DNA of 64,000 nucleotides from a phage, in sequence record PZ027503.1; one strand, given 5' to 3'. This document shows, piece by piece, positions 43,273 through 57,581 of the stretch (position 1 is its first letter; every line of letters starts with the position of its first letter). A program made the translations under genes and the position numbers. Below the pieces are notes generated by a model. That model was not told where the DNA came from. It saw only the letters and a list, made by a program, of their open reading frames with translations, and searched no databases.

Positions 43273-43793
43273 GATAATCTCCTCTCATTCTTAGCCATCT
43301 TTCATGGCAATCATCAATCACCAACATCATACGATCAATCTTAGGGAATTACAATCGAATTATCATAGGGGATTCCTATCAATTATCCCATATATACCGA
43401 TTATTTTTGACACCCCACTCTTGTATAAAAAGTAACCCAAAATATCTACGGGGAGAGATTATTTCGGGACACCCTGTTTCATGGCAATCATGGCAAGAAT
43501 ATCTAATAGAATCAATATGATATGGCAAAAATCATGGCGCATACGTAAGAAGTGCTTAACGCGAACTTTCGGGCCGTCAGGTCCACGCAGCGACAATTCC
43601 CAAATATCATGCGAATGAGAATAATTATCATTCGTATTCAATGACTTATGCAAGGCTCATGCCAACATAGCGACAAGGTGGGCCACTTGATTATAAATCA
43701 CACAAACACTTATTTATCAATAGGTTGGCAACTTCATCATATGACGGAACAATGTCAACTAATCCCGCTCATAACAGACAGACTATTATTTAT

Positions 43794-43807
43794 ATGAGAA
43801 TGATTAT
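43794..43807. repeat. ATGAGAATGATTAT direct repeat, copy 1
   Basis: Identical 14-mer at 56494-56507; both within near-palindromic AT-rich sites. Confidence 0.4.
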
Positions 43808-44202
43808 TATTTAAACGTTTATTAACATAAAACCAGAATAAATCAAGAATTTTCTGATTTTATTTACGTTTAAGAGAAGATGCTCAACATCCTACCGGAT
43901 CGCCGTTGGCAATCCTGCGGATATTTACGCCCCCATGATTAAGGTTTATCTCTTTTCTTAGTGCTCAACATTCCCGCCCGTGGCGGTAACATTTCGCCCC
44001 CAAAATTATTGACTTTTATTCTATTATGTGCATAGTGTGCAATGTATCGGAATGATGATAATCATCCTCCCATTGCCCCCAATAATTATTGCCATGCTAA
44101 TGATCTCATATTGTAATTATTACAATGATTATTGTTATTGCGCTAATGTTATGATCTTGGTAATTACATATAATGCTAATAATAAGCCAGCGCAATGAGT
44201 GT

Positions 44203-44218
44203 AAGCGTAATTACGCTT
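44203..44218. repeat. perfect 16-bp palindrome AAGCGTAATTACGCTT
   Basis: Self-complementary over 16 bp. Confidence 0.5.
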
Positions 44219-44379
44219 GCAATTATTGCAAGCTACGCAATAACAAGAAATAACCGTCACCGATGGTTATGATTGTTGGGGTGTAGTTGGCTTATTATTA
44301 GCTCGCTATGTGTCCGGCATAGCGTGCTAATGATGATCCTGGGAATGATTCGTTTTGTAATGATTTCATTCAGTCACTA

Positions 44380-44620
44380 TTATGGCAATAGTTATTATTT
44401 TAATGGTTTCGTTTGTTATTGTTCGTTAGTTGGTTGTTTTGTCGTGTTATCGTTATTTTGCTTAGTATTCATCATGGTTTGATTGTTTGTCGTTATCAAT
44501 CATCTTGCTATTATTCCTTTGATTATGATTAGTTTGCTTATTGTTTTATGTTGTTTGTTGGTTAGTTGTTGCGAACTATTATCAACATTATAATTATGCG
44601 CTTATATTGCATAGATAATC
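44380..44620. repeat. strand-skewed GT-rich low-complexity tract
   Basis: About 240 bp composed mostly of T and G on the plus strand with degenerate GTT/ATT repeats. Confidence 0.4.
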
Positions 44621-44852
44621 ATGGGTAGATGATAATGGTTATCATTGCACTAGAAAGGAGGTAGAAGGGTGTTTTTGATGGTTTGTTGTTGGTTGTTGAT
44701 CGATTTTAACCGCTATAAATGGCTCTCTAACAGCCTGTTACCCTGGGAGGTATGGTTATTCGTTTAATGGTTGATTAGCTCGATACCGCGATTTATTCAA
44801 TTTTGTTCTGTGTCGGTTTTTCATAGGCGAAAGCTATCAACATTGTTCGGGC

Positions 44853-44889
44853 AAAAAGAAAGGGCGCTTGGTGCGCCCTTGTTTTGTTG
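44853..44889. terminator. bidirectional terminator
   Basis: GGGCGC-ttggt-GCGCCC hairpin flanked by AAAAAGAAA and TTGTTTTGTTG. Confidence 0.5.
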
Positions 44890-44893
44890 TCAA

Positions 44894-45313
44894 TTATAAC
44901 GCTTCATAGATTGAGTAGATCCGGTTTGCCAGGTCATTACGAAAGCGGAATTTTTCATCACGTTTGATCATCAGATCCTTAAAACCGCATTCTTTCAGTG
45001 CTTCATTAACTTTACTGCGGCATACTTTCATATTGTCCTGCGCGTCACCAATAAACTTGTTACTATGATGCATTGCTTTGATCTCTTCTTCCAGGACCAG
45101 GGCAACTACACGGATCGGATCAAGCTGATACGCGGTAACATCCATGCGGCATTGTAAACGGCTTTTAACGTCTGCCACCGGATATACTGCAACCTCTTCC
45201 CCGTCAACGTTCACAATAACCAATTTACCATCGATTTCGAAGCCTTTAGCGGCGCTACCGTGACAAAAAGCGTTGTCGAAGGAGTAAGCTGGATTATTTG
45301 ATTTAATGTTCAT
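44894..45313 (-). CDS. hypothetical protein
   Basis: ORF in track; first gene of the GC-richer sub-region. Confidence 0.5.
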   Translation of the reverse strand: MNIKSNNPAYSFDNAFCHGSAAKGFEIDGKLVIVNVDGEEVAVYPVADVKSRLQCRMDVTAYQLDPIRVVALVLEEEIKAMHHSNKFIGDAQDNMKVCRSKVNEALKECGFKDLMIKRDEKFRFRNDLANRIYSIYEAL

Positions 45314-45453
45314 GGTGTTGTCCTTTGTTTCGTTTCGTTGTTTGCTGCCAGTGAGTTAAATATAATATAACGCCGATCCCCTGTCAATAGGGGATAGCGC
45401 ATTATTTACATTTCTTTACGTTAAAGGGCGCTTAGTGCGCCCCTTGTACAATC

Positions 45454-45822
45454 TTACTTTGTGCGGTTGTGAACGTTATCGCGTTCAACCATCAGGGCAA
45501 GGCGGATCAGTTGATCAGTTGTATCGCGTAAATTGTCGGGCCATGTTTTACTGTTCCAGCTATCCATGTTTGATTGTATATAGGTTTCAATGGCTTGATC
45601 CATATTATCAAACAAGTTTTCCTCCAGGCTCTCGGCTGTTTCACACTGGAAAGCATTAGCGACACTATTAATCAATAAGCAAGCCAGTAAATCAGCATTA
45701 CGCCAATTTTTACGGATAGTTTCATCTGTCAGATAACCAACGAGATTAACCTTTGCGCCAGTGGTTGACGTTGCGATCACTTCTTGTGCTTTTTCAAGTG
45801 CTTTAATTGCTGATTTGCTCAT
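45454..45822 (-). CDS. hypothetical protein
   Basis: Track ORF trimmed to ATG 45822 after AAAGAGGAAAA. Confidence 0.45.
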   Translation of the reverse strand: MSKSAIKALEKAQEVIATSTTGAKVNLVGYLTDETIRKNWRNADLLACLLINSVANAFQCETAESLEENLFDNMDQAIETYIQSNMDSWNSKTWPDNLRDTTDQLIRLALMVERDNVHNRTK

Positions 45823-46206
45823 TTTATTTTCCTCTTTGTGGGCTTGCTGTATTGCTCGCCCTACGTGATAAATAATAATGTAAGCGTGATCCGGTGTCAA
45901 TAGGTAGCATTGTAAAGATTTGATAGTTTATTCCTTTGATGTTTTGTTGTTTGATAGATGTTAGCTATCAATATATGGCGGGGTCGTCCGGTGATTATCT
46001 TCCCCTGCTCCCAGGTGCCGCCCGTTCAATAAGTATAACAAAAAACAGGACAAAAACAAGCCCTGTTTATTTATCTTAAAACCAGTTGCCAACCGTTTCC
46101 AATAGGTCACTGACTACCAGGACAACATTGATCAGCACATATTTAATCAGGAAGGGGATTAGCGCCAGCGCCGCTACTATGATCCCCATTGTCATGATTA
46201 CCTTTC

Positions 46207-46497
46207 TCATTGTTGGCGGTTTACGTAAGCTTTACCGTTTACGGTCATCTGTATGGCTTCAAGGTCTGGATCTTCCTTAAGGTCGCGTGCAAGCTCACCG
46301 CAGCGGATACCCTCGAATCCGTAGTATTCTGTTTCCCCGTCCTTAAAAGTTTTAGCGGCAAGGCATAGGCGATAATTAACGCCGATCCGGTTTACCGCGT
46401 TGATATCGGTTAACGCGATGGATTCAGGCAAATCATTAGCCATTACAGGCGCGTTAATACCAACAACCAGGGCAACTACTGCGATCATCTTTTTCAT
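46207..46497 (-). CDS. secreted protein with N-terminal signal peptide
   Basis: MKKMIAVVALVVGINAPVMA signal-like N-terminus; hairpin GGGGCGGTAACGCCCC in leader. Confidence 0.5.
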   Translation of the reverse strand: MKKMIAVVALVVGINAPVMANDLPESIALTDINAVNRIGVNYRLCLAAKTFKDGETEYYGFEGIRCGELARDLKEDPDLEAIQMTVNGKAYVNRQQ

Positions 46498-46552
46498 GCT
46501 TTCTAGCCTCTTCCTATTGCGTTTAATGGGGCGTTACCGCCCCGCTTATGGT

Positions 46553-46789
46553 TTATTGATTGATGTTATAATGAAAATTATTTTCTTCAATAGCTTTTAA
46601 AATAAAAGCCGTGATCGCTTTCGTGTCTACTTGTTCGAACGTATCGGAATAGCACCAATAATGATCATCCCCTACTTTCGGCGGGTAAACCTGGACAAGG
46701 AGATCGCCACCTGGTTGATCTATAAGCTCAACATGTAAGCCGGATGATTCAGCGGTTTTAACGGCGTTTAATACTGTTGCAATACTCAT
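46553..46789 (-). CDS. hypothetical protein
   Basis: ORF in track; AAAGGAA RBS; leader hairpin. Confidence 0.45.
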   Translation of the reverse strand: MSIATVLNAVKTAESSGLHVELIDQPGGDLLVQVYPPKVGDDHYWCYSDTFEQVDTKAITAFILKAIEENNFHYNINQ

Positions 46790-46833
46790 AATCTTTTCCT
46801 TTCTGATGTGGGGCGTTGCCGCCCCTTTGTTGA

Positions 46834-47133
46834 TTAGATCGCTGTTTCCAGTAGTTCGGCTAACGTCTTACCGCCTGATAGTTGGTCTAACGTTTGCTCT
46901 TCTGGCAAGAAATTAGCTGATATTAATCCGACTTGATTCCCTTTGTGCCAATTGGCTTGACGGATGATTCCATCCTTTAAAGATTTTACCGCCATTGTGC
47001 AACCGTCGCCAAATGATTCATTTTTATGATCCATTACTTCATAAGCGCCCAGCTTGCTGCTGTTAGGCACCATCAACGCGAATACATCACCAACAACCAG
47101 TTTTTCTACGGTAACAATAGCGATAGTTTCCAT
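46834..47133 (-). CDS. hypothetical protein
   Basis: ORF in track; GAGGAAAG RBS; leader hairpin. Confidence 0.5.
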   Translation of the reverse strand: METIAIVTVEKLVVGDVFALMVPNSSKLGAYEVMDHKNESFGDGCTMAVKSLKDGIIRQANWHKGNQVGLISANFLPEEQTLDQLSGGKTLAELLETAI

Positions 47134-47151
47134 TTTACTTTCCTCATTATC

Positions 47152-47169
47152 GGCGGCACCATTGCCGCC
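47152..47169 (-). promoter_or_regulatory. 5' leader stem-loop of promoter/stem-loop cassette
   Basis: GGCGGCA-atgg-TGCCGCC on the sense (minus) strand, no U-run, preceded by TTGATC/TATATT promoter-like elements. Confidence 0.5.
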
Positions 47170-47211
47170 CTACGCATTAAATATAAGTTATCTAAGAGAT
47201 TAGATCAAGGA

Positions 47212-47403
47212 TTATTTTGTAAAGATTACAGCTTCATCAAAATTTTCAACATAGTAAGCAAGCTCCTCATTTGCTGCAACCATTCCTAAAAGTTGGCTAT
47301 AAGATAAACCTTTGATCCCTTCCTCGTTGTTTAATGCTTCGATGATTTCATCAACGGGCGCAAAAAACATGTTATTCGATTCCAGGTAGGAGATGGTTTT
47401 CAT
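47212..47403 (-). CDS. hypothetical protein
   Basis: ORF in track. Confidence 0.45.
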   Translation of the reverse strand: MKTISYLESNNMFFAPVDEIIEALNNEEGIKGLSYSQLLGMVAANEELAYYVENFDEAVIFTK

Positions 47404-47424
47404 AATGTTTACCTTTTTCGGGGA

Positions 47425-47480
47425 GCGGCACCATTGCCGCCCTACGTGGTAAATATTAGCACACTGGCGATCTGTGTCAA
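47425..47480 (-). promoter_or_regulatory. promoter plus 5' stem-loop cassette
   Basis: TTGACA (plus tgtcaa 47475-47480), -10-like AT-rich hexamer, then GCGGCAATGGTGCCGC hairpin. Confidence 0.5.
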
Positions 47481-47486
47481 TACTTT

Positions 47487-47873
47487 TTATTCAATATAAA
47501 TCAAATTATCTTCACCAATGTAAGCCGACACGTTCGGCATAAACTTAGCTGCATTGGTTAGGCGGTTCGCCGTGTTAGTGGTGTATATTTCAGGGCGATC
47601 CCAAAAGCCTACGCCGTGACTGTTACGGGTAAAATGTAAATCATTCCCGATCTGGTTGGCTGTTGCGCCGTCGCTCATTGCCTCAGAGATAGCGGCAAGA
47701 TTAGCATTAATAAAGGCTGTTACATCCTGGGCGATCCGTTGATCCGCACTAGGAGAAAAATCATAATCGTCTAAGTTATCAATAAAATTACCTTCATAAT
47801 CCCTTGCTGATTCAGCAAAAATAAAGGCTTCTTTATAGCCGTTGATGATTTCAATAATGATTTCTGTTTTCAT
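47487..47873 (-). CDS. hypothetical protein
   Basis: ORF in track; ATGA overlap. Confidence 0.5.
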   Translation of the reverse strand: MKTEIIIEIINGYKEAFIFAESARDYEGNFIDNLDDYDFSPSADQRIAQDVTAFINANLAAISEAMSDGATANQIGNDLHFTRNSHGVGFWDRPEIYTTNTANRLTNAAKFMPNVSAYIGEDNLIYIE

Positions 47874-48085
47874 GCTGTACGCTCGACAATAATAATAGTT
47901 TGCGGGATCTCGTTTTCTACTACTAACAAGGCTTTTTTCTGTGTGATAGATATTTTAACACGTTGTAAAGTAGCGGTAAAATCTTTCATTTCATTATGCG
48001 CGGATTTAGTACAATGCCAGATCTCAGGTTTACCAACTTGCAAGCCGCGTAAAAATTCCGTTTTACCTGTCTTATTCGTGATCAT
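47870..48085 (-). CDS. hypothetical protein
   Basis: Track ORF trimmed to ATG 48085 after AAGGTGA. Confidence 0.45.
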   Translation of the reverse strand: MITNKTGKTEFLRGLQVGKPEIWHCTKSAHNEMKDFTATLQRVKISITQKKALLVVENEIPQTIIIVERTA

Positions 48086-48095
48086 TTGTTTCACC

Positions 48096-48200
48096 TTAAC
48101 CGATACCGTGGGAAGATAGGATCATATTAGCCATAGTTGCAACTACTCCAACCGATAACGCCAGGCCAACCACTGCAACCGTGAAAATTTTCTCTAACAT
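48096..48200 (-). CDS. small hydrophobic peptide (34 aa)
   Basis: Below track cutoff; GAGGG RBS; directly downstream of a cassette. Confidence 0.35.
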   Translation of the reverse strand: MLEKIFTVAVVGLALSVGVVATMANMILSSHGIG

Positions 48201-48218
48201 GATTCTACCCTCATTAAT

Positions 48219-48280
48219 GGGCGTTGCACCATTGCCCCGCCCTACGTAATACACTTTACCAGATAACAAACCATTGTCAA
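48219..48280 (-). promoter_or_regulatory. promoter plus 5' stem-loop cassette
   Basis: TTGACA at 48275-48280 (minus), nested hairpin GGGCG..GCA-ccat-TGC..CGCCC. Confidence 0.45.
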
Positions 48281-48338
48281 GGTTTATTTACTACATCTTT
48301 TAAGCTGTATTTTTAAAATACAGCTTTCAGGCTGTCAA

Positions 48339-48509
48339 TTACTCTTCATCGTCGCCGTTATAGTATTCAATGCCGTTTTCATCGGTTACGGTGATGTTAA
48401 CGCCACCGATAGCAACACGATCACGGGCAAACGTCATAGCTTCGTTTAAATCTTCAGACCAAAAAATATTGTGACCTTTGCGCGATACATAAAACATAGT
48501 TGGGATCAT
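48339..48509 (-). CDS. hypothetical protein
   Basis: Track ORF trimmed to ATG 48509; the longer N-terminus would translate the leader hairpin. Confidence 0.4.
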   Translation of the reverse strand: MIPTMFYVSRKGHNIFWSEDLNEAMTFARDRVAIGGVNITVTDENGIEYYNGDDEE

Positions 48510-48594
48510 GATTTGTTTCTCTTCTGTTGTGAGCGGTGGACCATTCCGCCGCTCTATGTAATAAACTTTACTACGTTGTTTGCCTACTGTCAAA

Positions 48595-48879
48595 TTATTT
48601 TTTAATGTTTTGCCCTACAAAATTGATCACTTCCTTAAGCTGTCTCTCTGTCATGATCGTACCTGGTAACTCTTCTTTAATTTCTTCCGGTAAATAAATA
48701 TTACCGCGCCAGGTTAACAAACAACCGTTTTGATCTTCGCAGATAGAATAAGAAAACATCCACTCGCAATCATTCTCAAGCTCCCAAAAACACAAAAAGT
48801 CTTCTTTCCCTAAGTTTTCAACGGTTAAACATAATCCGCGACGTGCTGCATAATTAGTTAGGCTTTTTGTGATTTTCAT
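48595..48879 (-). CDS. hypothetical protein
   Basis: Track ORF trimmed to ATG 48879; track start at 48912 lies inside the hairpin loop. Confidence 0.45.
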   Translation of the reverse strand: MKITKSLTNYAARRGLCLTVENLGKEDFLCFWELENDCEWMFSYSICEDQNGCLLTWRGNIYLPEEIKEELPGTIMTERQLKEVINFVGQNIKK

Positions 48880-48959
48880 GATTTTTCTCTCTTCTGTTGT
48901 GAGCGGCACCATTGCCGCCCTACAAGATACATATTATCAGACTACGCGGACTTGTCAAA

Positions 48960-49070
48960 CTATTTTTTCTTTTTCTTTGCTTCCAACCGTCTAAGGTTAC
49001 GGCTTGACTTATTGCGCAAGGCGCTTAGATCGTCGTACCCTTTCCATGCTTGCATATCTTTCGGATTCAT
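48960..49070 (-). CDS. small basic protein (36 aa)
   Basis: AAGGGGGA RBS before ATG 49070; the longer track ORF would overlap the upstream gene by 150 nt. Confidence 0.35.
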   Translation of the reverse strand: MNPKDMQAWKGYDDLSALRNKSSRNLRRLEAKKKKK

Positions 49071-49080
49071 GTTATCCCCC

Positions 49081-49359
49081 TTAACGATTATAAACATTAT
49101 GGATGGCTTCAAAGGCAAGATGACCATAAGCCGCCAAATCGGGATTGATCCAAGCGTTATCCAACATCGTTTCAAGGACTGTGGAATCATCGTATAAAGC
49201 ATCATAGAAATCTGCACGGATGATCGTTTCAATGTCGTCCGGTGTTAGTTTGTCGTTCAACTTGCACACTGTTTCAACGTCAACACCAATTTTCCAATTT
49301 TGTAAATTAGTGGTTAACATTGTTTTCATTTCTTCGGTTGTTAATTTAACGATGGTCAT
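49081..49359 (-). CDS. hypothetical protein
   Basis: ORF in track; cassette immediately upstream. Confidence 0.5.
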   Translation of the reverse strand: MTIVKLTTEEMKTMLTTNLQNWKIGVDVETVCKLNDKLTPDDIETIIRADFYDALYDDSTVLETMLDNAWINPDLAAYGHLAFEAIHNVYNR

Positions 49360-49383
49360 GATTTTTTCTCTCTTCTGTTAGGC

Positions 49384-49400
49384 GGGGCGCTTGTCGCCCC
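49384..49400 (-). promoter_or_regulatory. 5' leader stem-loop (cassette variant)
   Basis: GGGGCG-acaag-CGCCCC with TTGACA about 40 nt upstream on minus strand. Confidence 0.45.
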
Positions 49401-49439
49401 TATGTGATACATCTTATCAGGTTGATTCAGCTTGTCAAA

Positions 49440-49601
49440 CTATTTGTTAGCCGGATTATATGCCAGGACCGCGCCGCTTGCTTTCACGCTTTCCGCTTCA
49501 TAGTTGCGCAGATCGTTTTCTGTAAGATTGAGCGCGATCACTTCCTCAATCTCAACACCAGCGGCAATGGCGATCTCTTTGATAATGTCTGCTGTTTTCA
49601 T
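49440..49601 (-). CDS. hypothetical protein
   Basis: Track ORF trimmed to ATG 49601. Confidence 0.4.
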   Translation of the reverse strand: MKTADIIKEIAIAAGVEIEEVIALNLTENDLRNYEAESVKASGAVLAYNPANK

Positions 49602-49611
49602 GGTATGTACC

Positions 49612-49731
49612 TTATAAGATGATTGATAAGATAGTGACAACGAAAGCGATTATACTGATGGCAAATGTCATCTTTTTACCTTCGGATACTGCCGGATTTT
49701 CTACCGTGTATTCTACTGTGTACTTGCTCAT
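49612..49731 (-). CDS. small hydrophobic peptide (39 aa)
   Basis: Below track cutoff; GAGAGGA RBS; C-terminal hydrophobic helix. Confidence 0.3.
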   Translation of the reverse strand: MSKYTVEYTVENPAVSEGKKMTFAISIIAFVVTILSIIL

Positions 49732-49829
49732 CGTGTAATCCTCTCGTTTGCTTTGGGAACTATTCCCGCCGCCCTATGAATTAAATATACACTATCTCAA
49801 AATGATTGCAAGCCTTTTTCTAAATTATT

Positions 49830-50114
49830 TTATGCAGTAAACAAACCATCATTTACAACGGCGGCGATGATCTCCCGTGCCATTGATTCAGGGAAAGGGG
49901 CGCTATAGTCCTGGCTTGTCTCATCGGTATCGGTGATCCAATGATAAGCTAACGAGTAAAAGCCTTTACTAACTGTTTTCAGTGAGATGATGATCACTCG
50001 GTCAAGCTTATTGGTGAATGTTGCCGTTAATGTGTCACCCTCCTGCGTCATGTTGGACAAGTAAGCGGGATCATTAATCAGGGAAAACATTAGCACGGTG
50101 TTAGCTTTACTCAT
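49830..50114 (-). CDS. hypothetical protein
   Basis: Track ORF trimmed to ATG 50114 after GAGGA. Confidence 0.45.
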   Translation of the reverse strand: MSKANTVLMFSLINDPAYLSNMTQEGDTLTATFTNKLDRVIIISLKTVSKGFYSLAYHWITDTDETSQDYSAPFPESMAREIIAAVVNDGLFTA

Positions 50115-50186
50115 GATTGCATCCTCAAAGGGGGCGCGGCACCATTGCCGCCCTACACGATAACTATAACACAATATAAAACAGGA

Positions 50187-50393
50187 TCAACCTTTATTTT
50201 TCCACGGTGTCAGCTTGTTAATCATTGGTGATAAATAGCGTTTACCAACGTAAAACAGCACGCCAACTGATGCAACGGCGGCGACCTCATGCATAGCCGA
50301 CGGGAAACGGGTATCATAATAAGATCCAATAATAGCAATAGCGGCAACGGCTGCAACGTCGATAATGATTTTTTCTTGTTTTGCGGTGATCAT
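50187..50393 (-). CDS. small membrane protein (two hydrophobic segments)
   Basis: IIIDVAAVAAIAIIG and VAAVASVGVLFYVG segments. Confidence 0.45.
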   Translation of the reverse strand: MITAKQEKIIIDVAAVAAIAIIGSYYDTRFPSAMHEVAAVASVGVLFYVGKRYLSPMINKLTPWKNKG

Positions 50394-50478
50394 AATATTT
50401 ACCTTTTTGTATGGTGGGGAACTATTCCCCGCCTGATGTAATACAGTTTAACAGGTCCGGTTATGGTGTCAACCACTT

Positions 50479-50664
50479 TTAAAGATATTTTATGTTAATG
50501 ATGTTTTCAGGTTTTACCTTGTTATGATGTGCATCAACATAGATCAAACCATCGTCAGAAAAGCCCAGGATCACGCCCTGCGCAATAAAACCGTATTCGT
50601 CACGGTAACGCACGGCTATTTTTAATGTTGCGCTGTAGGCTGTTTTAAGCTCGTTTAAAGTCAT
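50479..50664 (-). CDS. hypothetical protein
   Basis: ORF in track; GAGGA RBS. Confidence 0.45.
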   Translation of the reverse strand: MTLNELKTAYSATLKIAVRYRDEYGFIAQGVILGFSDDGLIYVDAHHNKVKPENIINIKYL

Positions 50665-50685
50665 TTTTGTTTATCCTCTACATGT

Positions 50686-50711
50686 AAAAAGAAAGGGCGC
50701 TTGGTGCGCCC
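50686..50711 (-). terminator. intrinsic terminator (minus strand)
   Basis: GGGCGC-accaa-GCGCCC followed by TTTCTTTTT on minus strand. Confidence 0.55.
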
Positions 50712-50719
50712 TTGTTATG

Positions 50720-50866
50720 TTAATCCTCTAAATCCATCCAATTATATTTGTCACTCTTCCCGCGCTTTGTTTTATTGCGCTTGTCGCCTTTGCGGATCAC
50801 TTCCTCGTTCCAGGCCTTGCGGATCTTGGAAGATTGAATTTTTTCTGCGCGATTAGATGTATTCAT
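50720..50866 (-). CDS. small basic protein (48 aa)
   Basis: Below track cutoff; AAAGAGGAAA RBS. Confidence 0.35.
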   Translation of the reverse strand: MNTSNRAEKIQSSKIRKAWNEEVIRKGDKRNKTKRGKSDKYNWMDLED

Positions 50867-50945
50867 TTTGTTTCCTCTTTATATGAGCGGCACTATTGCC
50901 GCTATATTGTTAATTTAAACTGTTTTGTAAAATTGTCAAGGTTTA

Positions 50946-51299
50946 TCATTCATAAGAGCAAGCAAGGATCACGCCTGCAATATAAAGCCAATAATTTTCC
51001 CTTTCTCGTTGGATTTTATCATCGCTGCTATTCTCTTTAATGTATCCCCAGGATGTTAACAACCGATCTACTTCCCAATACTCGAAAGCTATATTAATAT
51101 TTGACGGTAAACCTTGTAACCATGATGCTATTGCTCTGATAATGTTATGATCGTAACGTTTTTGATTATCGGTGTACCAATATTCAGATTTAAAACAGCG
51201 CATCAATTCCGCGATCTTCTCTTTCTCTTCTGTGATGCCATACTCGCTATAATCAATTGAGGCCAGAATATAAAGTTTAATTGCATTTTGTGCTTTCAT
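50946..51299 (-). CDS. hypothetical protein
   Basis: ORF in track; cassette upstream. Confidence 0.5.
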   Translation of the reverse strand: MKAQNAIKLYILASIDYSEYGITEEKEKIAELMRCFKSEYWYTDNQKRYDHNIIRAIASWLQGLPSNINIAFEYWEVDRLLTSWGYIKENSSDDKIQRERENYWLYIAGVILACSYE

Positions 51300-51319
51300 G
51301 GTGTCTCTCTTCTGTTGTT

Positions 51320-51337
51320 GGCGGCACCATTGCCGCC
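51320..51337 (-). promoter_or_regulatory. 5' leader stem-loop of cassette
   Basis: GGCGGCA-atgg-TGCCGCC. Confidence 0.5.
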
Positions 51338-51376
51338 CTATGTGTTACATCTTACCGGATTTTTAAAACTTGTCAA

Positions 51377-51598
51377 TCATTTTTCTACTATCATTTGATA
51401 CCCTGTTTCCAGGTTAGTAAACACCGTGATCCCGTCCTGGCGTTCACTCATTAGCATACAAGGCGCTAACATCCTTTCTACTGCCTTGCACTCATTGTAA
51501 ACGGCGGTTATGTCTCCTGCGGCCTTGTCTTCTGTGGTGAATGTATCGTTTACGTAAACCTGACCAGCGACAACGGCGACAATAGCGAAAGTGATCAT
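51377..51598 (-). CDS. hypothetical protein
   Basis: ORF in track; N-terminus MITFA shared with next small ORF. Confidence 0.45.
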   Translation of the reverse strand: MITFAIVAVVAGQVYVNDTFTTEDKAAGDITAVYNECKAVERMLAPCMLMSERQDGITVFTNLETGYQMIVEK

Positions 51599-51665
51599 GG
51601 TGTTTCCTTGTTAGTAGTGGTTTCTCTTCTCTATAGCGCCCATTGTAAGGCGCTATAACGAAAAG

Positions 51666-51839
51666 TCAACGATTATTTTTAAGGCTTAAAGTACCTAACT
51701 TGTCAGCATGACGCAGACCAGGGAAGATCCATTTGCCTGATTCATCTTTTACAGGTGCTTTAAACGTAGCGCCCAGGTTGGCGGCGTTAATTTTACGGGC
51801 AACGTTGCGAGCGGCTTCACGGGTAGCGAAAGTGATCAT
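51666..51839 (-). CDS. small protein (57 aa)
   Basis: Below track cutoff; begins MITFA like neighbouring gene. Confidence 0.3.
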   Translation of the reverse strand: MITFATREAARNVARKINAANLGATFKAPVKDESGKWIFPGLRHADKLGTLSLKNNR

Positions 51840-51931
51840 GGTGTTTTCCTCTTCTCTTTGTTAGGCGGTGGACCATTCCGCCGCCTTGATGTAATACAGT
51901 TTACTTTATTTTTGCAGTATTGCAAGCGGTT

Positions 51932-52144
51932 TTATGAAATAATCGTCAAAGTAAAATTGTAATCACCTGATTGATACAATACTTTATCACCGAACGTTCC
52001 AACACGTTTAACATTGCAATATATACCCATAACACTTTTTACATCTTTGATATTCTTCACGCCTGTAATATCTTTATTAAAATGATCGTGATCAGAAAAT
52101 AAAACTTGACTTGCATTTTTTAACAGTGTGCGGATATTAGCCAT
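51932..52144 (-). CDS. hypothetical protein
   Basis: ORF in track; cassette upstream. Confidence 0.45.
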   Translation of the reverse strand: MANIRTLLKNASQVLFSDHDHFNKDITGVKNIKDVKSVMGIYCNVKRVGTFGDKVLYQSGDYNFTLTIIS

Positions 52145-52234
52145 CGTAATAATCTCTCTTCTGTTGTGAGCGGCACCATTGCCGCCCTACGTAATATAGT
52201 TTACTCTTTTTCTTTCCCGTGTCAACAATCTTTT

Positions 52235-52462
52235 TCAGATTAATTCATCCAGGCATAACAGGCGATCAACGTTGAGATCGGTTAGGCTGATGGTTGGCAC
52301 CTGGTAGGATTCGATGTACTCGACGCTTGCATATTCCCCAAAATTAGCAATAGCCCACTTATTCAAGATCTCACATACATCATTAATCTTTTTGTTTGTT
52401 ACGACTGCAATAACCTGGGAAGTGCCAACGGTGCCGGATACGCGAACAATATTGATAGCCAT
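52235..52462 (-). CDS. hypothetical protein
   Basis: ORF in track; N-terminus MAINI shared with 52882 gene. Confidence 0.45.
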   Translation of the reverse strand: MAINIVRVSGTVGTSQVIAVVTNKKINDVCEILNKWAIANFGEYASVEYIESYQVPTISLTDLNVDRLLCLDELI

Positions 52463-52552
52463 AATCTTTAATCTCTCTGTTTTGGCGGGAAACCACTTCC
52501 CGCCCTATGTGATACATCTTACACTAATTTTAAACGTTGTCAACTGTTTTTA

Positions 52553-52792
52553 TTACATTCCAACCATCGCGGCACGGATCGCAGTAGTGCTATATTTGAA
52601 ACCGTCTGGCGTTTTATCTTGTCCAGTTTGTTCCAGAAAAAGCATCATATCCCGCGCCGCATCATTACGATTAGCATTAGCGTTAATAAAATCTTGGGCC
52701 AACCGGTATAACGATTCATCGTTATTAATCCAAAGGCTTACATTCCAATGAGTTTTGTTTTTGTGACCGTTGTACATTTTAGATTTAGCCAT
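52553..52792 (-). CDS. hypothetical protein
   Basis: ORF in track. Confidence 0.45.
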   Translation of the reverse strand: MAKSKMYNGHKNKTHWNVSLWINNDESLYRLAQDFINANANRNDAARDMMLFLEQTGQDKTPDGFKYSTTAIRAAMVGM

Positions 52793-52881
52793 GATTTTTC
52801 TCTCTTTTTCAGTGAGGCGGGAAGTGTTCCCGCTCTCTATGTAATACAGTTTACTCTTTTTATTCGTGCTGTCAATGCTTT

Positions 52882-53247
52882 TTATAAATCTTTTTTACGT
52901 TTTACATCGCTCGCATGACTGTATACAGTGATCCCATTGTCACGGCAAAAACGGGAAAGGTAGGCATAATTTGAAAACTCTTTACCTTCCAGGTTGATAA
53001 CCTTGCTAAACTCTTCTAGGGCAACGGTATCAAAATGATCACCATAGCCATATTGAAACGGAACGTTAACCACCTCGATCAGTTTACCGCCGATCTCAAC
53101 GTCAACCATTAAAGAGAAATATGTGTTACCGTAGGACCGTTGAAACCAGCGACGGGCGCTAATGTGCACCGCTTCAATGCTGGATAATTCAATTTTAGCC
53201 GTGTTAGCCAGGGTAGCATAAGCGGAAACATTGATATTAATAGCCAT
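52882..53247 (-). CDS. hypothetical protein
   Basis: ORF in track. Confidence 0.5.
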   Translation of the reverse strand: MAININVSAYATLANTAKIELSSIEAVHISARRWFQRSYGNTYFSLMVDVEIGGKLIEVVNVPFQYGYGDHFDTVALEEFSKVINLEGKEFSNYAYLSRFCRDNGITVYSHASDVKRKKDL

Positions 53248-53344
53248 GATGATAATCTCTCTTTTTGGTTAGTGGGAAGTATTCCCGATAAAAGTTATTA
53301 TGCTTATACTATCACTCATTGTCAATAGTATAAGACTAAAACTT

Positions 53345-53524
53345 TTAACGATAATCGTTATAGGCTTTATTGACCTGGCGAATGTAACATTCGAAAGCAA
53401 GATCAATGTATTCGTATTCACGCACATAATCACCATAGGTCACTACATACATTTTTAAAGTTTCCTCATAAGCCAGGAGGATCGAATCTAAACCTATAAT
53501 CTCAGTTTTTGCAATGATAGCCAT
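53345..53524 (-). CDS. small protein (59 aa)
   Basis: Below track cutoff; begins MAII; cassette directly upstream. Confidence 0.35.
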   Translation of the reverse strand: MAIIAKTEIIGLDSILLAYEETLKMYVVTYGDYVREYEYIDLAFECYIRQVNKAYNDYR

Positions 53525-53544
53525 GATGTTAACCTTTTATTGTT

Positions 53545-53602
53545 GGCGGCACCATTGCCGCCCTACGTGATAAACTATACCAGAAGTTTAAACAGTGTCA
53601 AC
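53545..53602 (-). promoter_or_regulatory. promoter plus 5' stem-loop cassette (best-resolved copy)
   Basis: Minus strand: TTGACA (53602-53597), 17-bp spacer, TATAGT (53579-53574), 11 nt, GGCGGCA-atgg-TGCCGCC (53562-53545). Confidence 0.55.
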
Positions 53603-53607
53603 CGTTT

Positions 53608-53970
53608 TTATTCGTAAATTTTACCGCTTTCGGCCCATACCATAACGCGGCGCATACTATCCCAAGTGTTTTGATCCAGGTTTAAGCCGTGCAACTCTTC
53701 GGTACTTCCCAGACCAGGTACCGCTTTGTTGTAAGTCGCATATAAGCGCCCTTGATACTCATACGCCAGAGTAAGATCCGTTTGAATCATCTTTTTAAGC
53801 ATAGCATTAAGCATCATATTAGCGGCATGTTGATCACGTTTTAGCGGTAACATATCAATAAGGGCGCGATAAGCTGAAACATGGATATCAACCGTTTCAC
53901 GTGGTAAATTTTTCATATCATCGCGGAAAGATACCAGATTAAATATGATAGTATTGATTTGCTTGCTCAT
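53608..53970 (-). CDS. hypothetical protein
   Basis: ORF in track. Confidence 0.5.
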   Translation of the reverse strand: MSKQINTIIFNLVSFRDDMKNLPRETVDIHVSAYRALIDMLPLKRDQHAANMMLNAMLKKMIQTDLTLAYEYQGRLYATYNKAVPGLGSTEELHGLNLDQNTWDSMRRVMVWAESGKIYE

Positions 53971-54185
53971 TGTGTTACCCTTTTTTGTTTTGGCGGGGAA
54001 GTATTCCGCCGCCCTATGTGATACATCTTATCAGATTAAAAAACGTTGTCAAGAATATTTTTAGAAAATAATATCCGCTACTACAACCCAAAATGGAACG
54101 GCTAGAATGATAGCGTTAATCGTTCCAACCGTCAAGCTATTTTCTTTATTAATCATTGTAAGCCTCTTGCATAATTTCACTATGA

Positions 54186-54201
54186 GCGGCACCATTGCCG
54201 C
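54186..54201 (-). promoter_or_regulatory. 5' leader stem-loop of cassette
   Basis: GCGGCA-atgg-TGCCGC. Confidence 0.45.
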
Positions 54202-54238
54202 CCTACGTGGTAAATATTATGCCAGTGGCGGCGATATG

Positions 54239-54805
54239 TCAAAGACTATTTTCAAAGTTTTCTAGTGCGATCCTTTTTTCTTCCTCTGTCGGCTGATAAT
54301 CAGGAAAAGCATCAACACACAACAACGGCGGGATCTCTTCGTACTCTTCCTCTTCCGTTGTCTCCTCGTCTTCCTCCTGGGCTATGGCTGCAATTTTGGC
54401 TAATTTTCTTTCGGCTTGAATCAATTTACCATCAAGTACGTTTTTTGCCATGTTGTAAGCGGTCCAGGTGATGCGCTTACTTTCCAACGCTTCATCAAGC
54501 GCCGCTATCTTGCTGGGGTATTCATCCAGGACACGAAAAGCCGGATCAATTTTGTACAAAGGATTATCTTTCGCGCCGTCGCTTGCATCTTCCGCACTGG
54601 ATAAATCAGCGTTACCATTTGCCAGCCAGCCAGGGCGCACATAACGCGCTTTTACGTTGCCGTTACTACGTGCTAATCTGTTACCTATTTGCTCACCGCT
54701 ATATCCCGTGGATTCATCGATAAGATGATCGGGAATGATGCGCGGATCATCTGCTTCATGTTTTACCCAAGACTGGATCACATATTCGCGGCCCATATTA
54801 ACCAC
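54239..54805 (-). CDS. hypothetical acidic protein
   Basis: ORF in track, 188 aa with Glu-rich segment. Confidence 0.5.
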   Translation of the reverse strand: MVNMGREYVIQSWVKHEADDPRIIPDHLIDESTGYSGEQIGNRLARSNGNVKARYVRPGWLANGNADLSSAEDASDGAKDNPLYKIDPAFRVLDEYPSKIAALDEALESKRITWTAYNMAKNVLDGKLIQAERKLAKIAAIAQEEDEETTEEEEYEEIPPLLCVDAFPDYQPTEEEKRIALENFENSL

Positions 54806-55055
54806 CTTTTTTCAACAATTGGCATACTTTAAAAAGACTTGCTGAATCCTTGCAAGGGTAGAAAGATGTACGATAATCACGTACGCCAACCTTGCGGATC
54901 TCGATGTTCTCGCATGTTGTTTGATCAAAGATATTTATTTCATCACGCCCCCTTATATAAACATAGTGGGGATGTATTAACGCATATTTTGCTAATCTGT
55001 AAAAAGCGTTATCTTTGAACGCGATCACGTGACCTTTTAATTTGATGTAAAACAT
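54798..55055 (-). CDS. hypothetical protein
   Basis: ORF in track; cassette upstream. Confidence 0.45.
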   Translation of the reverse strand: MFYIKLKGHVIAFKDNAFYRLAKYALIHPHYVYIRGRDEINIFDQTTCENIEIRKVGVRDYRTSFYPCKDSASLFKVCQLLKKGG

Positions 55056-55131
55056 TCTACCACCTTACAAATAGCGGGAACTATTCCCGCTTTATGTAAC
55101 ATATTAACAAATTATTCGTTAATGTCAAGCC

Positions 55132-55404
55132 TTAAAGCAAAAACGCTACATCTTGCGCTTTTAGTGTAGTATCAACCATTTTCGGGCTTTTATAATCAAC
55201 AAAGCGCGCGGTTTTTTCAATAGCGAAACCGAGATAATCTTGCTTGTTGAAATTACACTCTTTCTTAAATGTTTCCCGTGCAATGGCAATCGCTGCGTCC
55301 AGGGATAAACGCCCGTCAATATTGATATTAGCGAAAGATCCGCCACCGCTCATAGGTTTACCAGTTGTGCCAGCTACGATCATTGTTGCGCTATATGATG
55401 CCAT
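55132..55404 (-). CDS. hypothetical protein
   Basis: ORF in track; cassette upstream. Confidence 0.45.
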   Translation of the reverse strand: MASYSATMIVAGTTGKPMSGGGSFANINIDGRLSLDAAIAIARETFKKECNFNKQDYLGFAIEKTARFVDYKSPKMVDTTLKAQDVAFLL

Positions 55405-55494
55405 GATGATAATCTCTCTTCTGTTACGAGCGGGAAACCACTTCCCGCCCTATGTGATACATCTTATCAGGTTGTTGTTTGTTGTCAATACTTT

Positions 55495-55692
55495 TTATTC
55501 TATCCCTGCAATTTGATTAACGCGCTTGCATTTTGTAGCGTGCTGGTCTTCTGTAATGACTCCCATTTCTAACAGGGAATCAATGAAAGATAAAACCGTT
55601 TCATGATCATCCTGGGGATGACTGAACTCAGTAAAACCGTTTACCACGACGCTGATTTGTCCTGCTTTCGCCACAATGTGCAATGTTGCCAT
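55495..55692 (-). CDS. hypothetical protein
   Basis: ORF in track; last gene of the cassette array. Confidence 0.45.
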   Translation of the reverse strand: MATLHIVAKAGQISVVVNGFTEFSHPQDDHETVLSFIDSLLEMGVITEDQHATKCKRVNQIAGIE

Positions 55693-55891
55693 GATTTTAA
55701 CTCCAGGTGATGAATGATGTTTTTTGTTGGTGGACGGTGGATTATGGAGATCCTCACCTTTGCCCGTCCTGCATTGCGCCCCTCCTGTTGTTTATTGTCG
55801 TTGTGCCGCGCCCCCCTCGACAAGATGAATACTACGCCACCAGGTGAGGAACGTCAACCACTTTTTCAATCTTTTTTATTTTCTTTTTTGC

Positions 55892-55920
55892 TTGCTGTAT
55901 ATGAAGGAAACGGCTATCAT
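55892..55920 (+). promoter_or_regulatory. possible sigma70-like promoter
   Basis: TTGCTG, 17-bp spacer, TATCAT upstream of lone plus-strand gene. Confidence 0.3.
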
Positions 55921-55967
55921 CTTTCTACCGCGCCAACCAGGGCGCACAACAAAGAAAGGGCGATACC

Positions 55968-56234
55968 ATGACAAATACTACATTACACCTTATGCACTCA
56001 TTGGGCTGGCAAGGCGGCACGGTGCACCAGGTAGCAAGCGCAACGGGCTTAAAGGTTGAAACAGTTCTCAACCTGGGCGATCATAAGGTGGAAGAGATAG
56101 ATCATTTTGATTCGTTCGCTGATGGTTATTTATGGGCTTGCAGTGGCGGCGGGGAAAGCAAGATACCGCCAGGGGAGCGGGGTAATATGTATTTTTGGTT
56201 AGGTGTCCTATCCTGGCAAGAAGATAAAAAATAA
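55968..56234 (+). CDS. hypothetical protein (lone plus-strand gene inside minus-strand block)
   Basis: 88-aa ORF with AAGGG RBS; GC-richer than surroundings. Confidence 0.45.
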   Translation: MTNTTLHLMHSLGWQGGTVHQVASATGLKVETVLNLGDHKVEEIDHFDSFADGYLWACSGGGESKIPPGERGNMYFWLGVLSWQEDKK

Positions 56235-56262
56235 TCTTGACAAGCCCAGGGATCGGGCTTAT
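56234..56262 (+). promoter_or_regulatory. sigma70-like promoter
   Basis: TTGACA, 17-bp spacer, TATACT; no sizeable ORF downstream. Confidence 0.5.
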
Positions 56263-56269
56263 ACTGTTT

Positions 56270-56480
56270 TACATACAGAAGAGGAAGCGCCACCCCACGG
56301 CGTAAAGGCGGGGCTAACATACCAGGGCGCTGGTTGGAAGGTTGATCGCCGGTAGGCTGGGCGCTATATATTTGTAAAGAAATGTAAAGATAAAATAATC
56401 GCTTGCTTTCCTGGCTGGATCTGTTATTCTTATTACATGGCGAGGGGACACGGGAGCGCGAGACAAACACCACCCCTGCG
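56270..56480 (+). ncRNA. candidate non-coding transcribed region (unclassified)
   Basis: Downstream of consensus promoter; GC-rich with several potential helices; no ORF over 20 codons. Confidence 0.2.
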
Positions 56481-56493
56481 CGTCATTCTCTAG

Positions 56494-56507
56494 ATGAGAA
56501 TGATTAT
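56494..56507. repeat. ATGAGAATGATTAT direct repeat, copy 2
   Basis: Identical to 43794-43807; lies in Fur-box-like near-palindrome GAGAATGATTATCATTC. Confidence 0.4.
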
Positions 56508-56617
56508 CATTCACCTTATTAAATAAGAATCAATCTCATTTATAAACTTAAATGCGAATCATTATCATTTGCATTTCCATATGAGAACTCTTCTCATTCT
56601 CACCTGCATAAATTTTT

Positions 56618-56660
56618 GTAAACTTTAAATTTTGCTTTTGTACTTTCATTTTTGTAAAAG
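56618..56660. repeat. about 40-bp direct repeat, copy 1 (AAACTTTAAATTTTG...TTTTGTAAA)
   Basis: About 35 of 39 positions identical to copy at 56756-56798; period about 138 bp. Confidence 0.5.
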
Positions 56661-56755
56661 CAAAAAAACTTTAAATACTGTGGGCGCGCAAAATTTTTAA
56701 AATTTTCCTTGACTTTTGAGTTTTGTTTTGTATCTAACATTTTAAGATAATTTTC

Positions 56756-56798
56756 CTAAACTTTAAATTTTGGTTTTCAACTTTCACTTTTGTAAATT
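56756..56798. repeat. about 40-bp direct repeat, copy 2
   Basis: See 56618-56660; each copy followed by a shorter related AAAACTTTAAATA motif. Confidence 0.5.
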
Positions 56799-56957
56799 CT
56801 TAAAAAGTTTAAATAATTTGAGGGATTTTTGAGATAATGGATAGTGGGAATTTGATATAACCTTTAATCTTATTAGTAGACCTTCAGGAACCCACTTAGA
56901 TCGAATCCTAGTGATGCAAACTGAAAAAGATAAGGGTTTGTATAGGACAAAATAACA

Positions 56958-56990
56958 GGCTCTCTACGGTGCTGTAGGAGCCTTATTTCT
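56958..56990. terminator. bidirectional terminator-like hairpin
   Basis: GGCTC.CTAC-ggtgct-GTAG.GAGCC followed by TTATTTCT (plus) and TGTTATTTTG (minus). Confidence 0.45.
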
Positions 56991-57038
56991 ATGCTACAAA
57001 GTGACACCTTTGTTCTAAAAATGAAAAAAGTTAAAATA

Positions 57039-57581
57039 TCACAAATATCGTCTTTGCGGTATTTTGTCTGGGAAAAGTATTTCGATCAGTTTATTATGAT
57101 ATTTACCTAAAAGATTCTGCCCTTTCCAGGTGGCAGGGTTTAGCACCCCTGGTTCATACATCCCCATTCCAATTCCGTAAACCTTATCGTAGGGGCTTGC
57201 TTCAACAAACGTTTTGTATTGGTAAAGGTGTAAGTCTGCATACAAATCTGGATTCTGTACATATTTCAAGCATAAACCTCGCATAACAATACGCTCACGG
57301 TTCTCTTCCCATACGTTGTTATCAAAATCCGACACTGCCCTACCCATACGTTTGTAATAAGCTTGGATCTTCTCATCTTTCCGTATCAAACTATGAGTCA
57401 GAATAGCCTGTGCAGTGTTGTGATCATTAAAAAGCAAAGCTTTACGCCACATCATGTATTGTTCGACACAATTAAATGTCTGATTGTAACCTGGTTCGGT
57501 TTCTGTAAAGGGTGCAATATACCAATTACTAAAAACATCTTTATGTGAAAAGAAGAATACATAATCATCAGTTATTCGCAT
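57039..57581 (-). CDS. NADAR-domain protein (YbiA-like, DUF1768)
   Basis: FFFS...FSNW, VEQYMMWRKALLF, KRMGR, VEASPYDKVYGIGMG, NLLGK follow the YbiA/NADAR pattern. Confidence 0.75.
   Translation of the reverse strand: MRITDDYVFFFSHKDVFSNWYIAPFTETEPGYNQTFNCVEQYMMWRKALLFNDHNTAQAILTHSLIRKDEKIQAYYKRMGRAVSDFDNNVWEENRERIVMRGLCLKYVQNPDLYADLHLYQYKTFVEASPYDKVYGIGMGMYEPGVLNPATWKGQNLLGKYHNKLIEILFPDKIPQRRYL

Follow-up and report, generated by a model that had tools for sequence, protein, structure and literature searches.

In a 64,000-nucleotide stretch of phage DNA (sequence record PZ027503.1; the whole stretch is called the window below), a GC-richer block of small genes lies between two non-coding spacers, and the same exact 14-mer, ATGAGAATGATTAT, is found in both of them, at 43794-43807 and 56494-56507, 12,700 bp apart. 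What are these repeats for? A preliminary description of this DNA had read them as recombinogenic boundaries of a separately evolving or horizontally exchanged module and had pointed to related ATGCGAAT...ATTATCATT sites nearby; the exact pair was recovered as described, and the related sites were located at 43609-43632 and 56552-56569. The analysis led to a different answer, in which the 14-mers belong to a family of palindromes matching the operators of the E. coli protein Fur, and host Fur is the most likely binder. The 14.5 kb around the repeats matched E. coli myoviruses of the genus Phapecoctavirus (phAPEC8-like, Stephanstirmvirinae; ~150 kb), the top match showing 94-97% identity over 94-99% of the query. 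All annotated features in the best-matching Phapecoctavirus records are hypothetical proteins.

Fur-box-like palindromes in the two spacers

A lone exact pair is uninformative because chance alone should give about 15 exact 14-mer pairs on the same strand in 64 kb with such a composition, a caution that the preliminary description had itself raised. When up to two mismatches were allowed, eight matches to the 14-mer were found against 1.28 expected, a count reached by none of 100 shuffles, and seven of the eight lay in the two spacers. Each 14-mer is the core of a 19-bp palindrome with the consensus AATGAGAATnATTMTCATT. The palindromes were scored with a Fur matrix built solely from 11 E. coli K-12 sites (nohB, fepD-entS, entC, ydhY, sufA, ydiE, fecI, yeiT, cir, fadD, and yebN), the centre coordinates of which were taken from Table 4 of Chen et al. 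2007 (PMC2189734). Under a leave-one-out matrix, the K-12 sites themselves scored 14.4-20.8 bits; the centres and scores of the phage boxes, designated L1-L3 in the left spacer and R1-R4 in the right spacer, are given in Table 1. Six matches of at least 14 bits were present in the window, all of them in the two spacers, against a simulated mean of 0.33, and simulations using each spacer's own composition never reached the observed counts (0/500). The complete genome of the relative 536P1 (149,471 bp) also contained six matches at this threshold, all in the two homologous regions.

The same picture was obtained with consensus sequences. Five of the six window matches to the 7-1-7 Fur consensus (TGATAATnATTATCA, at most two mismatches) fell in the two spacers, three of them with a single mismatch, and the homologue of L2 in Justusliebigvirus PaulScherrer, TGATAATGATTATCA, matched the published 7-1-7 consensus perfectly. 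Box R1, which contains the right 14-mer, differed from the footprinted fecI operator TATGAGAATGGTTATCATT at 2 of 19 bases. Secondary matches to the Fur matrix, shifted by 6 bp, were observed at 56508 (R1) and 56566 (R3), with 8.7-9.9 bits; in natural Fur clusters, overlapping sites are offset by 3 or 6 bp (PMC2189734). The phage boxes share with E. coli Fur operators (Fur box GATAATGATAATCATTATC or the 7-1-7 form; for example fecI, sufA, and entC) the 19-bp palindrome, scores equal to or above those of real sites, possible secondary sites shifted by 6 bp, and, in one copy, a position over a promoter -10 hexamer. They differ from them in standing on a virulent genome, in a terminal repeat and a 29-bp phased array, in not overlapping each other at an iron-uptake promoter, and in the preference of one half-site for GAGAAT.

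The boxes were among the best-conserved columns in otherwise diverging non-coding DNA of Phapecoctavirus, Justusliebigvirus, Certrevirus, Mydovirus, and Vequintavirus. The right spacer forms a conserved hub, the core of which (~56230-56600) retained 70-77% identity in Justusliebigvirus and in three genera of Vequintavirinae (Certrevirus, Mydovirus, and Vequintavirus); the Vequintavirinae sharing it are phages of Pectobacterium, Cronobacter, Proteus, Klebsiella, and E. coli. The 29-bp spacing of R1-R4 was identical in 536P1, phiTE, CR8, and Mydo. The left spacer was conserved as DNA in Phapecoctavirus and partly in Justusliebigvirus, and L1 was conserved in phiWec186, PsgM04F, and PaulScherrer. 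At the 44.6-kb promoter, the TTGCAT hexamer, the -10 hexamer, and L3 were all conserved as far as Justusliebigvirus, and L3 covers both the -10 hexamer and the presumed start site, as in classical repression by Fur. A leftward promoter considered over box L1 was dropped, its -35 hexamer not being conserved.

Boxes L1 and L2 lie inside what appears to be the direct terminal repeat of this phage, L1 ~65 bp in from the left edge and L2 ~82 bp in from the right one. The first 328 bp of the Mt1B1_P17 record (MT496970) are identical to its last 328 bp and aligned at 98% to window positions 43558-43884, and at least eight other records of the genus begin or end at positions equivalent to 43558 or 43884. 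The left spacer would hold the genome terminus, of which the window has one collapsed copy, an assignment made by homology only. Direct terminal repeats have been reported in Stephanstirmvirinae (PMC12695924), with a length of 342 bp in phage BME3 (PMC12210895). The exact end repeat of Mt1B1_P17 agrees with these reports, which give existence and length only, whereas the content of the repeat described here includes two Fur-box-like palindromes. In the Klebsiella phage FKP3 (Justusliebigvirus), the sequence at the start of the record (1-80) recurs exactly 500 bp further on (501-580), all 80 compared nucleotides being identical, and the recurring sequence includes an L1-type box. The record probably gives its terminal repeat twice in tandem.

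The motif extends to unrelated phages. T5-like phages aligned with 56522-56576 at 81-87% identity, and palindromes E, G, and I and 'direct repeat C' in the left terminal repeat of T5 (AY587007, 9468-9637) scored 15-24 bits with the Fur matrix. In T5, 'repeat region 3' adjoins the injection stop signal and the 7.9% nick, and Davison assigned the function of the repeat region to DnaA boxes (bioRxiv 10.1101/866236). The T5 region resembles the window in carrying the same motif (AAATGAGAATCATTATCATTTGCATTT), in clustering it within a terminal repeat, and in being conserved though non-coding. It differs in that the T5 terminal repeat spans 10 kb and contains pre-early genes, in that the motif is spaced by 36-58 bp rather than 29 bp, and in that no DnaA-box cluster of the kind Davison proposed for T5 was found in the window. 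A further parallel is offered by the DNA-packaging regions of prophages, where a Fur-titration hit was reported for nohB (DLP12) and a Fur gel shift for nohA (Qin) (Chen et al., PMC2189734). The strong DLP12 (nohB) Fur site, GATGATAATTATTATCATT, was located in E. coli K-12 upstream of nohD, 43 bp to the left of the cosN cohesive-end sequence GGGCGGCGACCT. These cases also place a strong Fur box in non-coding phage DNA near a genome end, but each concerns a single site in a temperate lambdoid prophage beside a cohesive-end site, whereas the window has several sites in the putative direct terminal repeat of a virulent myovirus. In the literature that was searched, Fur was not connected with the pre-early DNA of T5 or with any of these phage families.

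We consider it probable, from the motif matches and their positions, that the protein bound at these boxes is host Fur. Two findings favour a host factor: the same motif occurs in the unrelated phage T5, and no phage-encoded Fur homologue was found in the window or in 536P1 by tblastn with an approximate Fur query. A shared host factor is also the simplest reading because an 88-amino-acid (aa) protein encoded in the right spacer, itself a candidate binder, is missing from T5-like phages that carry the same motif. When the DNA enters an iron-replete cell, Fe2+-Fur dimers would occupy the boxes. Bound Fur could then repress or obstruct overlapping and upstream promoters; alternatively, its part could be architectural, at the hub and at the ends of the DNA. 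In both cases, early transcription and the expression of the flanking non-coding RNAs would be tied to the iron status of the host, and Fur might additionally be titrated by the replicating phage DNA. The block evolves apart from the boxes, its cassettes being gained and lost by recombination at their own promoter/hairpin repeats. Regulation should be clearest at the 44.6-kb promoter, and we are less sure of a structural or regulatory role at the terminal repeat and the phased array.

Several observations weigh against Fur. Nearly all phage copies carry GAGAAT in place of the GATAAT half-site of the Fur consensus, and that G occurs in only 2 of the 11 K-12 sites; so systematic a departure may point to another protein. 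Natural Fur clusters are not spaced as R1-R4 are, and their exact 29-bp period is closer to that of an iteron or operator array. Clear overlap with a conserved promoter was seen for L3 only, and not for L1, L2, or R1-R4. Several of the 11 K-12 sites in the matrix are predictions of the model of Chen et al. and were not footprinted. The exact box pattern was found in at least 120 viral contigs of all sizes, the motif being AT-rich and widespread. Finally, T5 destroys host DNA early, and titration of Fur would there be without obvious benefit. Given the GAGAAT half-site, the 29-bp phasing, and the scarce promoter overlap, a phage-encoded binder and an origin-type array both stay in contention.

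A broader proposal, which we put forward tentatively and would not yet call probable, is that several unrelated groups of virulent enterobacterial phages (Stephanstirmvirinae, Vequintavirinae, and T5-like Demerecviridae, with a related lambdoid site near cos) recruit host Fur to conserved phased arrays at their terminal repeats and early control regions. Fur would there either switch early non-coding RNAs in response to iron or have an architectural function when the DNA enters or its ends are handled. If Fur does bind, a large group of therapeutic-candidate coliphages would sense host iron at their DNA ends and early hub, or would there make use of a protein that is abundant in the host, and iron limitation in the gut or in infected tissue could alter the outcome of infection. 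The same motif adjoins the injection stop signal of T5, a 60-year-old puzzle. Three results do not depend on Fur, namely the placement of the terminus in the window, the shuffling of PeSL-type cassettes in a new phage family (described below), and at least one well-supported RNA-like element without an Rfam family.

Table 1. Coordinates of the features discussed, in window positions (strand left empty where none is assigned; scores are from the K-12 Fur matrix).
Feature	Coordinates	Strand	Evidence or detail
Left non-coding spacer, putative genome-terminus region	43273-44893		no gene annotated in relatives; no conserved open reading frame (ORF)
Equivalent of the 328-bp direct terminal repeat (putative physical genome ends)	43558-43884		homology to Mt1B1_P17
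Fur-box-like palindrome L1, AATGAGAATAATTATCATT	43614-43632		centre 43623; 23.8 bits
Fur-box-like palindrome L2, holding the left 14-mer	43793-43811		centre 43802; 18.5 bits
Structured element, three-way junction plus 3' hairpin	44175-44324	+	conserved pairing, compensatory changes
Promoter TTGCAT-18-GATAAT with overlapping Fur-box-like palindrome L3 (44628-44646)	44607-44646	+	L3 centre 44637; 21.5 bits
Conserved non-coding transcript region	44647-44888	+	nucleotide-level conservation; ends at bidirectional terminator 44860-44880
Hyperplastic block, ~31 small function-unknown genes	44894-55692	-	ORFs, composition, PHROGs, mosaic presence/absence in relatives
At least 13 cassettes: TTGACA-16/17-TAnnnT, ~8 nt, TAGGGCGG, GC hairpin, ribosome-binding site	45857-55488	-	repeat families D1-D8, promoter scan
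Right spacer, conserved regulatory hub	55693-57038		cross-subfamily conservation
88-aa ORF with helix-turn-helix-like stretch (GLKVETVLNL), divergent from the block	55968-56234	+	phrog_19316, function unknown; no Pfam match
Promoter P1 (TTGACA-17-TATACT, 56237-56265), then RNA-like element RNA1 (56271-56355)	56237-56355	+	promoter scan, conservation
Direct repeat TTGTAAAGAAATGTAAAGA, promoter P2 (TTGCTT 56403-56408, -10 at ~56425-56430), hairpin RNA2 (56439-56484)	56372-56490	+	all conserved across subfamilies
Phased array of four Fur-box-like palindromes R1-R4	56493-56598		centres 56502, 56531, 56560, 56589; 21.1, 15.8, 18.8, 12.4 bits
AT-rich stretch with two 72-nt direct repeats	56611-56820		repeat family D15, 82% identical

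Alternative explanations for the boxes

That the palindromes are only Fur-like and are sites for a phage-encoded dimeric DNA-binding protein is unlikely in our judgement. Candidates are the 88-aa protein, a small terminase subunit, or a terminus-binding protein. The systematic GAGAAT half-site and the exact 29-bp phase of the R array fit such a protein, as do the two boxes 65-82 bp inside the edges of the terminal repeat, a possible place of action for a protein of packaging or end processing, and the conserved small ORF with a helix-turn-helix-like stretch (judged by eye only) that adjoins the hub. The N-terminal part of the 88-aa ORF matched phrog_33408, a 143-aa PHROG. The ORF occurs in Stephanstirmvirinae, and beyond them it was found in a few phages, with partial N-terminal tblastn matches in Pectobacterium phage CB7 and Citrobacter phage Tr1. 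However, T5-like phages lack it and no copy was detected in Mydovirus or Vequintavirus, although all of these carry the same boxes. The motif is common to unrelated phage families whose common factor is the enterobacterial host, and the box scores equal those of genuine Fur operators. These points favour host Fur over a binder supplied by the phage.

A second proposal, which we regard as improbable and which is compatible with either binder, treats the right spacer as a replication origin. P1 and P2 would supply transcripts acting as primers or activators, the phased palindromes would have the role of iterons, and the repeats of 21.5% GC would form an unwinding element, while the left boxes would serve end replication or packaging. 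The arrangement itself speaks for this proposal, since two strong conserved promoters are followed by the phased array and then by the most AT-rich 200 bp, with 72-nt direct repeats; the origins of T7 and T4, in which a promoter is combined with AT-rich DNA, are similar in layout. Against the proposal stand the lack of a DnaA-box cluster in the window and the AT-rich part, which is not conserved outside Stephanstirmvirinae. GC skew is uninformative on this point, as it tracks the direction of transcription: genes lie on the plus strand until ~25 kb and on the minus strand thereafter, the exceptions being the two non-coding spacers, in which the skew goes positive.

The reading from which the analysis started, that of a 12.7-kb module exchanged horizontally with the 14-mers as its recombinogenic boundaries, now appears very improbable. 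The window was compared by local BLAST with seven relatives (UP17, P3322, ESCO25, ZCKP1, tuntematon, PsgM04F, and PNJ1809-36). Both spacers and the intervening block were kept in all seven, and the gene content of the block was mosaic. Homology breakpoint clusters (n = 32) fell inside the block, 28 of them in intergenic cassettes or spacers or at most 12 nt from a gene end (32% expected; binomial P = 9e-11), and none of the 32 coincided with 43794-43807 or 56494-56507, an outcome that the preliminary description had itself listed as refuting its reading. In one example, the segment 47188-47424 was lost between the repeat copies 47151-47197 and 47423-47469. The block is thus a hotspot at which close relatives have gained, lost, or replaced genes. 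Its distinct base composition at third codon positions and its variable gene content had favoured an exchanged module, but no relative lacked the block or swapped it as a unit, and the junctions lay at internal cassettes. Because no breakpoint was found at either 14-mer, recombinogenic boundaries at these repeats are unsupported. The sites are moreover conserved palindromes with three further copies in the right spacer, they also occur in phages without this block layout, and the chance expectation for exact 14-mer pairs applies here as well. What holds of the module is that it is compositionally distinct and evolves separately; exchange as a unit between the 14-mers does not.

Least probable of all is a functionless, chance similarity in AT-rich non-coding DNA, which the AT-rich motif, the 36.6% GC of the left spacer, and the frequency of the motif in viral contigs might suggest but which is opposed by the spacer-composition simulations and by the retention of the sites across two subfamilies where their flanks diverge.

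Further elements of the spacers

In the left spacer, a variable segment (43890-44100) begins at the right edge of the terminal repeat and is followed, ~290 bp inside the putative genome end, by a structured element of ~150 nt (44175-44324). A stem of 15 bp closes this element, which has two hairpins inside and another on the 3' side. Thirteen of its 60 predicted pairs showed compensatory double changes among six sequences, and 97.8% of cells were paired, compared with 25-52% when the partners were slid; none of 500 shuffles reached any of these measures. The G-U pairs are compatible with the plus strand only. The element is probably an RNA and is strongly supported as a structure, without an Rfam family. 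A search of 43.0-57.5 kb against Rfam 15 at E ≤ 1 gave only two chance-level matches (E ~0.8), neither of them at the conserved elements, and a tRNA scan of the 64-kb window found none. The conserved non-coding stretch that follows the 44.6-kb promoter extends over ~240 nt. Within it, a 32-codon ORF downstream of L3 (44669-44767) was ruled out as a gene, a stop codon truncating it in phiWec186 and PsgM04F.

In the right spacer, whose two conserved promoters are of the sigma-70 type, P1 matches the promoter consensus at 11 of 12 positions, and a 29-nt core of RNA1, CCACCCCACGGCGnAAAGGCGGGGCTAAC, was invariant from Phapecoctavirus to Certrevirus and Mydovirus. RNA1 showed one covarying pair and an apical loop of variable length, and a coding function was excluded because indels of 1-6 nt occur among relatives. 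A pseudoknot between CCCC and GGGG is possible in RNA1, and the bases concerned are invariant. In RNA2, the stems differ in sequence with some pairing kept, the loop GAGACAAACACC is conserved, and covariation is weak (two pairs). Given the weak covariation of both elements, their status as RNAs rests mainly on the conserved promoters and the loops of variable length. Minus-strand ORFs over RNA1 and RNA2 were ruled out as genes by stop codons and frame-shifting indels in relatives.

Between the two elements, at 56372-56390, a direct repeat (TGTAAAGA/GTAAAGA, 11 bp apart) stands immediately upstream of the P2 -35 hexamer and was kept in all subfamilies; it may resemble tandem OmpR/PhoB-type response-regulator sites. 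The segment 56620-56819 has 21.5% GC, the lowest of any 200-bp window in the 64 kb, and the layout of 56611-56820, right after the palindrome array, resembles a replication origin. In a Raoultella phage Ro1-like contig (6772-7181 of its locus, minus strand), an ORF (MKKVYGVGVND...) is inserted directly after RNA1, at the position expected for P2 and the palindrome array; it looks like a free-standing insertion of the homing-endonuclease type.

Composition and cassettes of the intervening block

The block was described beforehand as GC-richer than its surroundings, and this was borne out: its GC content is 41.2%, compared with 38.9% for the window, 36.6% for the left spacer, and 40.2% for the right spacer. 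It ranks 11th among 532 windows of 10.8 kb, and the shift is genuine though modest. The bounding regions had been called AT-rich, which holds throughout the left one but in the right half only of the right one. GC content at third codon positions (GC3) was 0.414 in the 31 block genes versus 0.329 in the 110 other genes (Mann-Whitney p = 1.8e-8), and it also exceeded that of 37 neighbouring genes (0.365; p = 0.002). The first and second codon positions did not differ between block and other genes, the whole GC excess being at third positions. Candidate causes of the higher GC3 are exchange within a GC-richer gene pool, host-like codon use for immediate expression, and a recombination-associated bias. 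The distinct intergenic architecture noted earlier was also confirmed, with a median spacer of 81.5 bp in the block versus 12 bp outside it.

The spacers of the block carry a repeated cassette, which consists, in order on the minus strand, of an A-rich stretch, TTGACA, 16-17 nt, TAnnnT, ~8 nt, TAGGGCGG at the start of a GC hairpin, a ribosome-binding site, and ATG. The strict pattern yielded 13 copies, every one on the minus strand and restricted to 45.8-55.5 kb, and 14 of the 15 minus-strand TAGGGCG motifs of the window fell in this zone. The hairpin stems vary in sequence with the pairing kept. The hairpin is located ~8 nt past the -10 hexamer and before the ribosome-binding site, and a U-tract is lacking on the coding strand.

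PeSL cassettes of T4-type phages combine a sigma-70 early promoter with a GC-rich stem-loop between the orphan genes of a hyperplastic region (Arbiol et al. 2010, PMC2839356; Comeau et al. 2014, PMC4122927). The block resembles them in its repeated units of a sigma-70-like promoter and a GC stem-loop between orphan genes, and in the concentration of indel and replacement breakpoints among relatives in these promoter/hairpin units. It differs in its phage family, Stephanstirmvirinae, and in its hairpin, which comes after the -10 hexamer, where the transcript begins, and has no U-tract; therefore, the hairpin is not a terminator preceding the promoter. We regard the block as an ordinary hyperplastic region of small early genes, though one with a new family variant of the PeSL kind. 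A 36-nt bidirectional terminator at its left end (44853-44888) reappears in mid-block at 50686-50721 with 97% identity.

Ten flanking and block proteins were compared with PHROGs and Pfam. All PHROG matches were to function-unknown families, and the sole Pfam match was a NADAR domain (E = 8e-36) in the product of the first gene to the right of the hub (57039-57581, minus strand), which is called 'GTP cyclohydrolase II' in some records.

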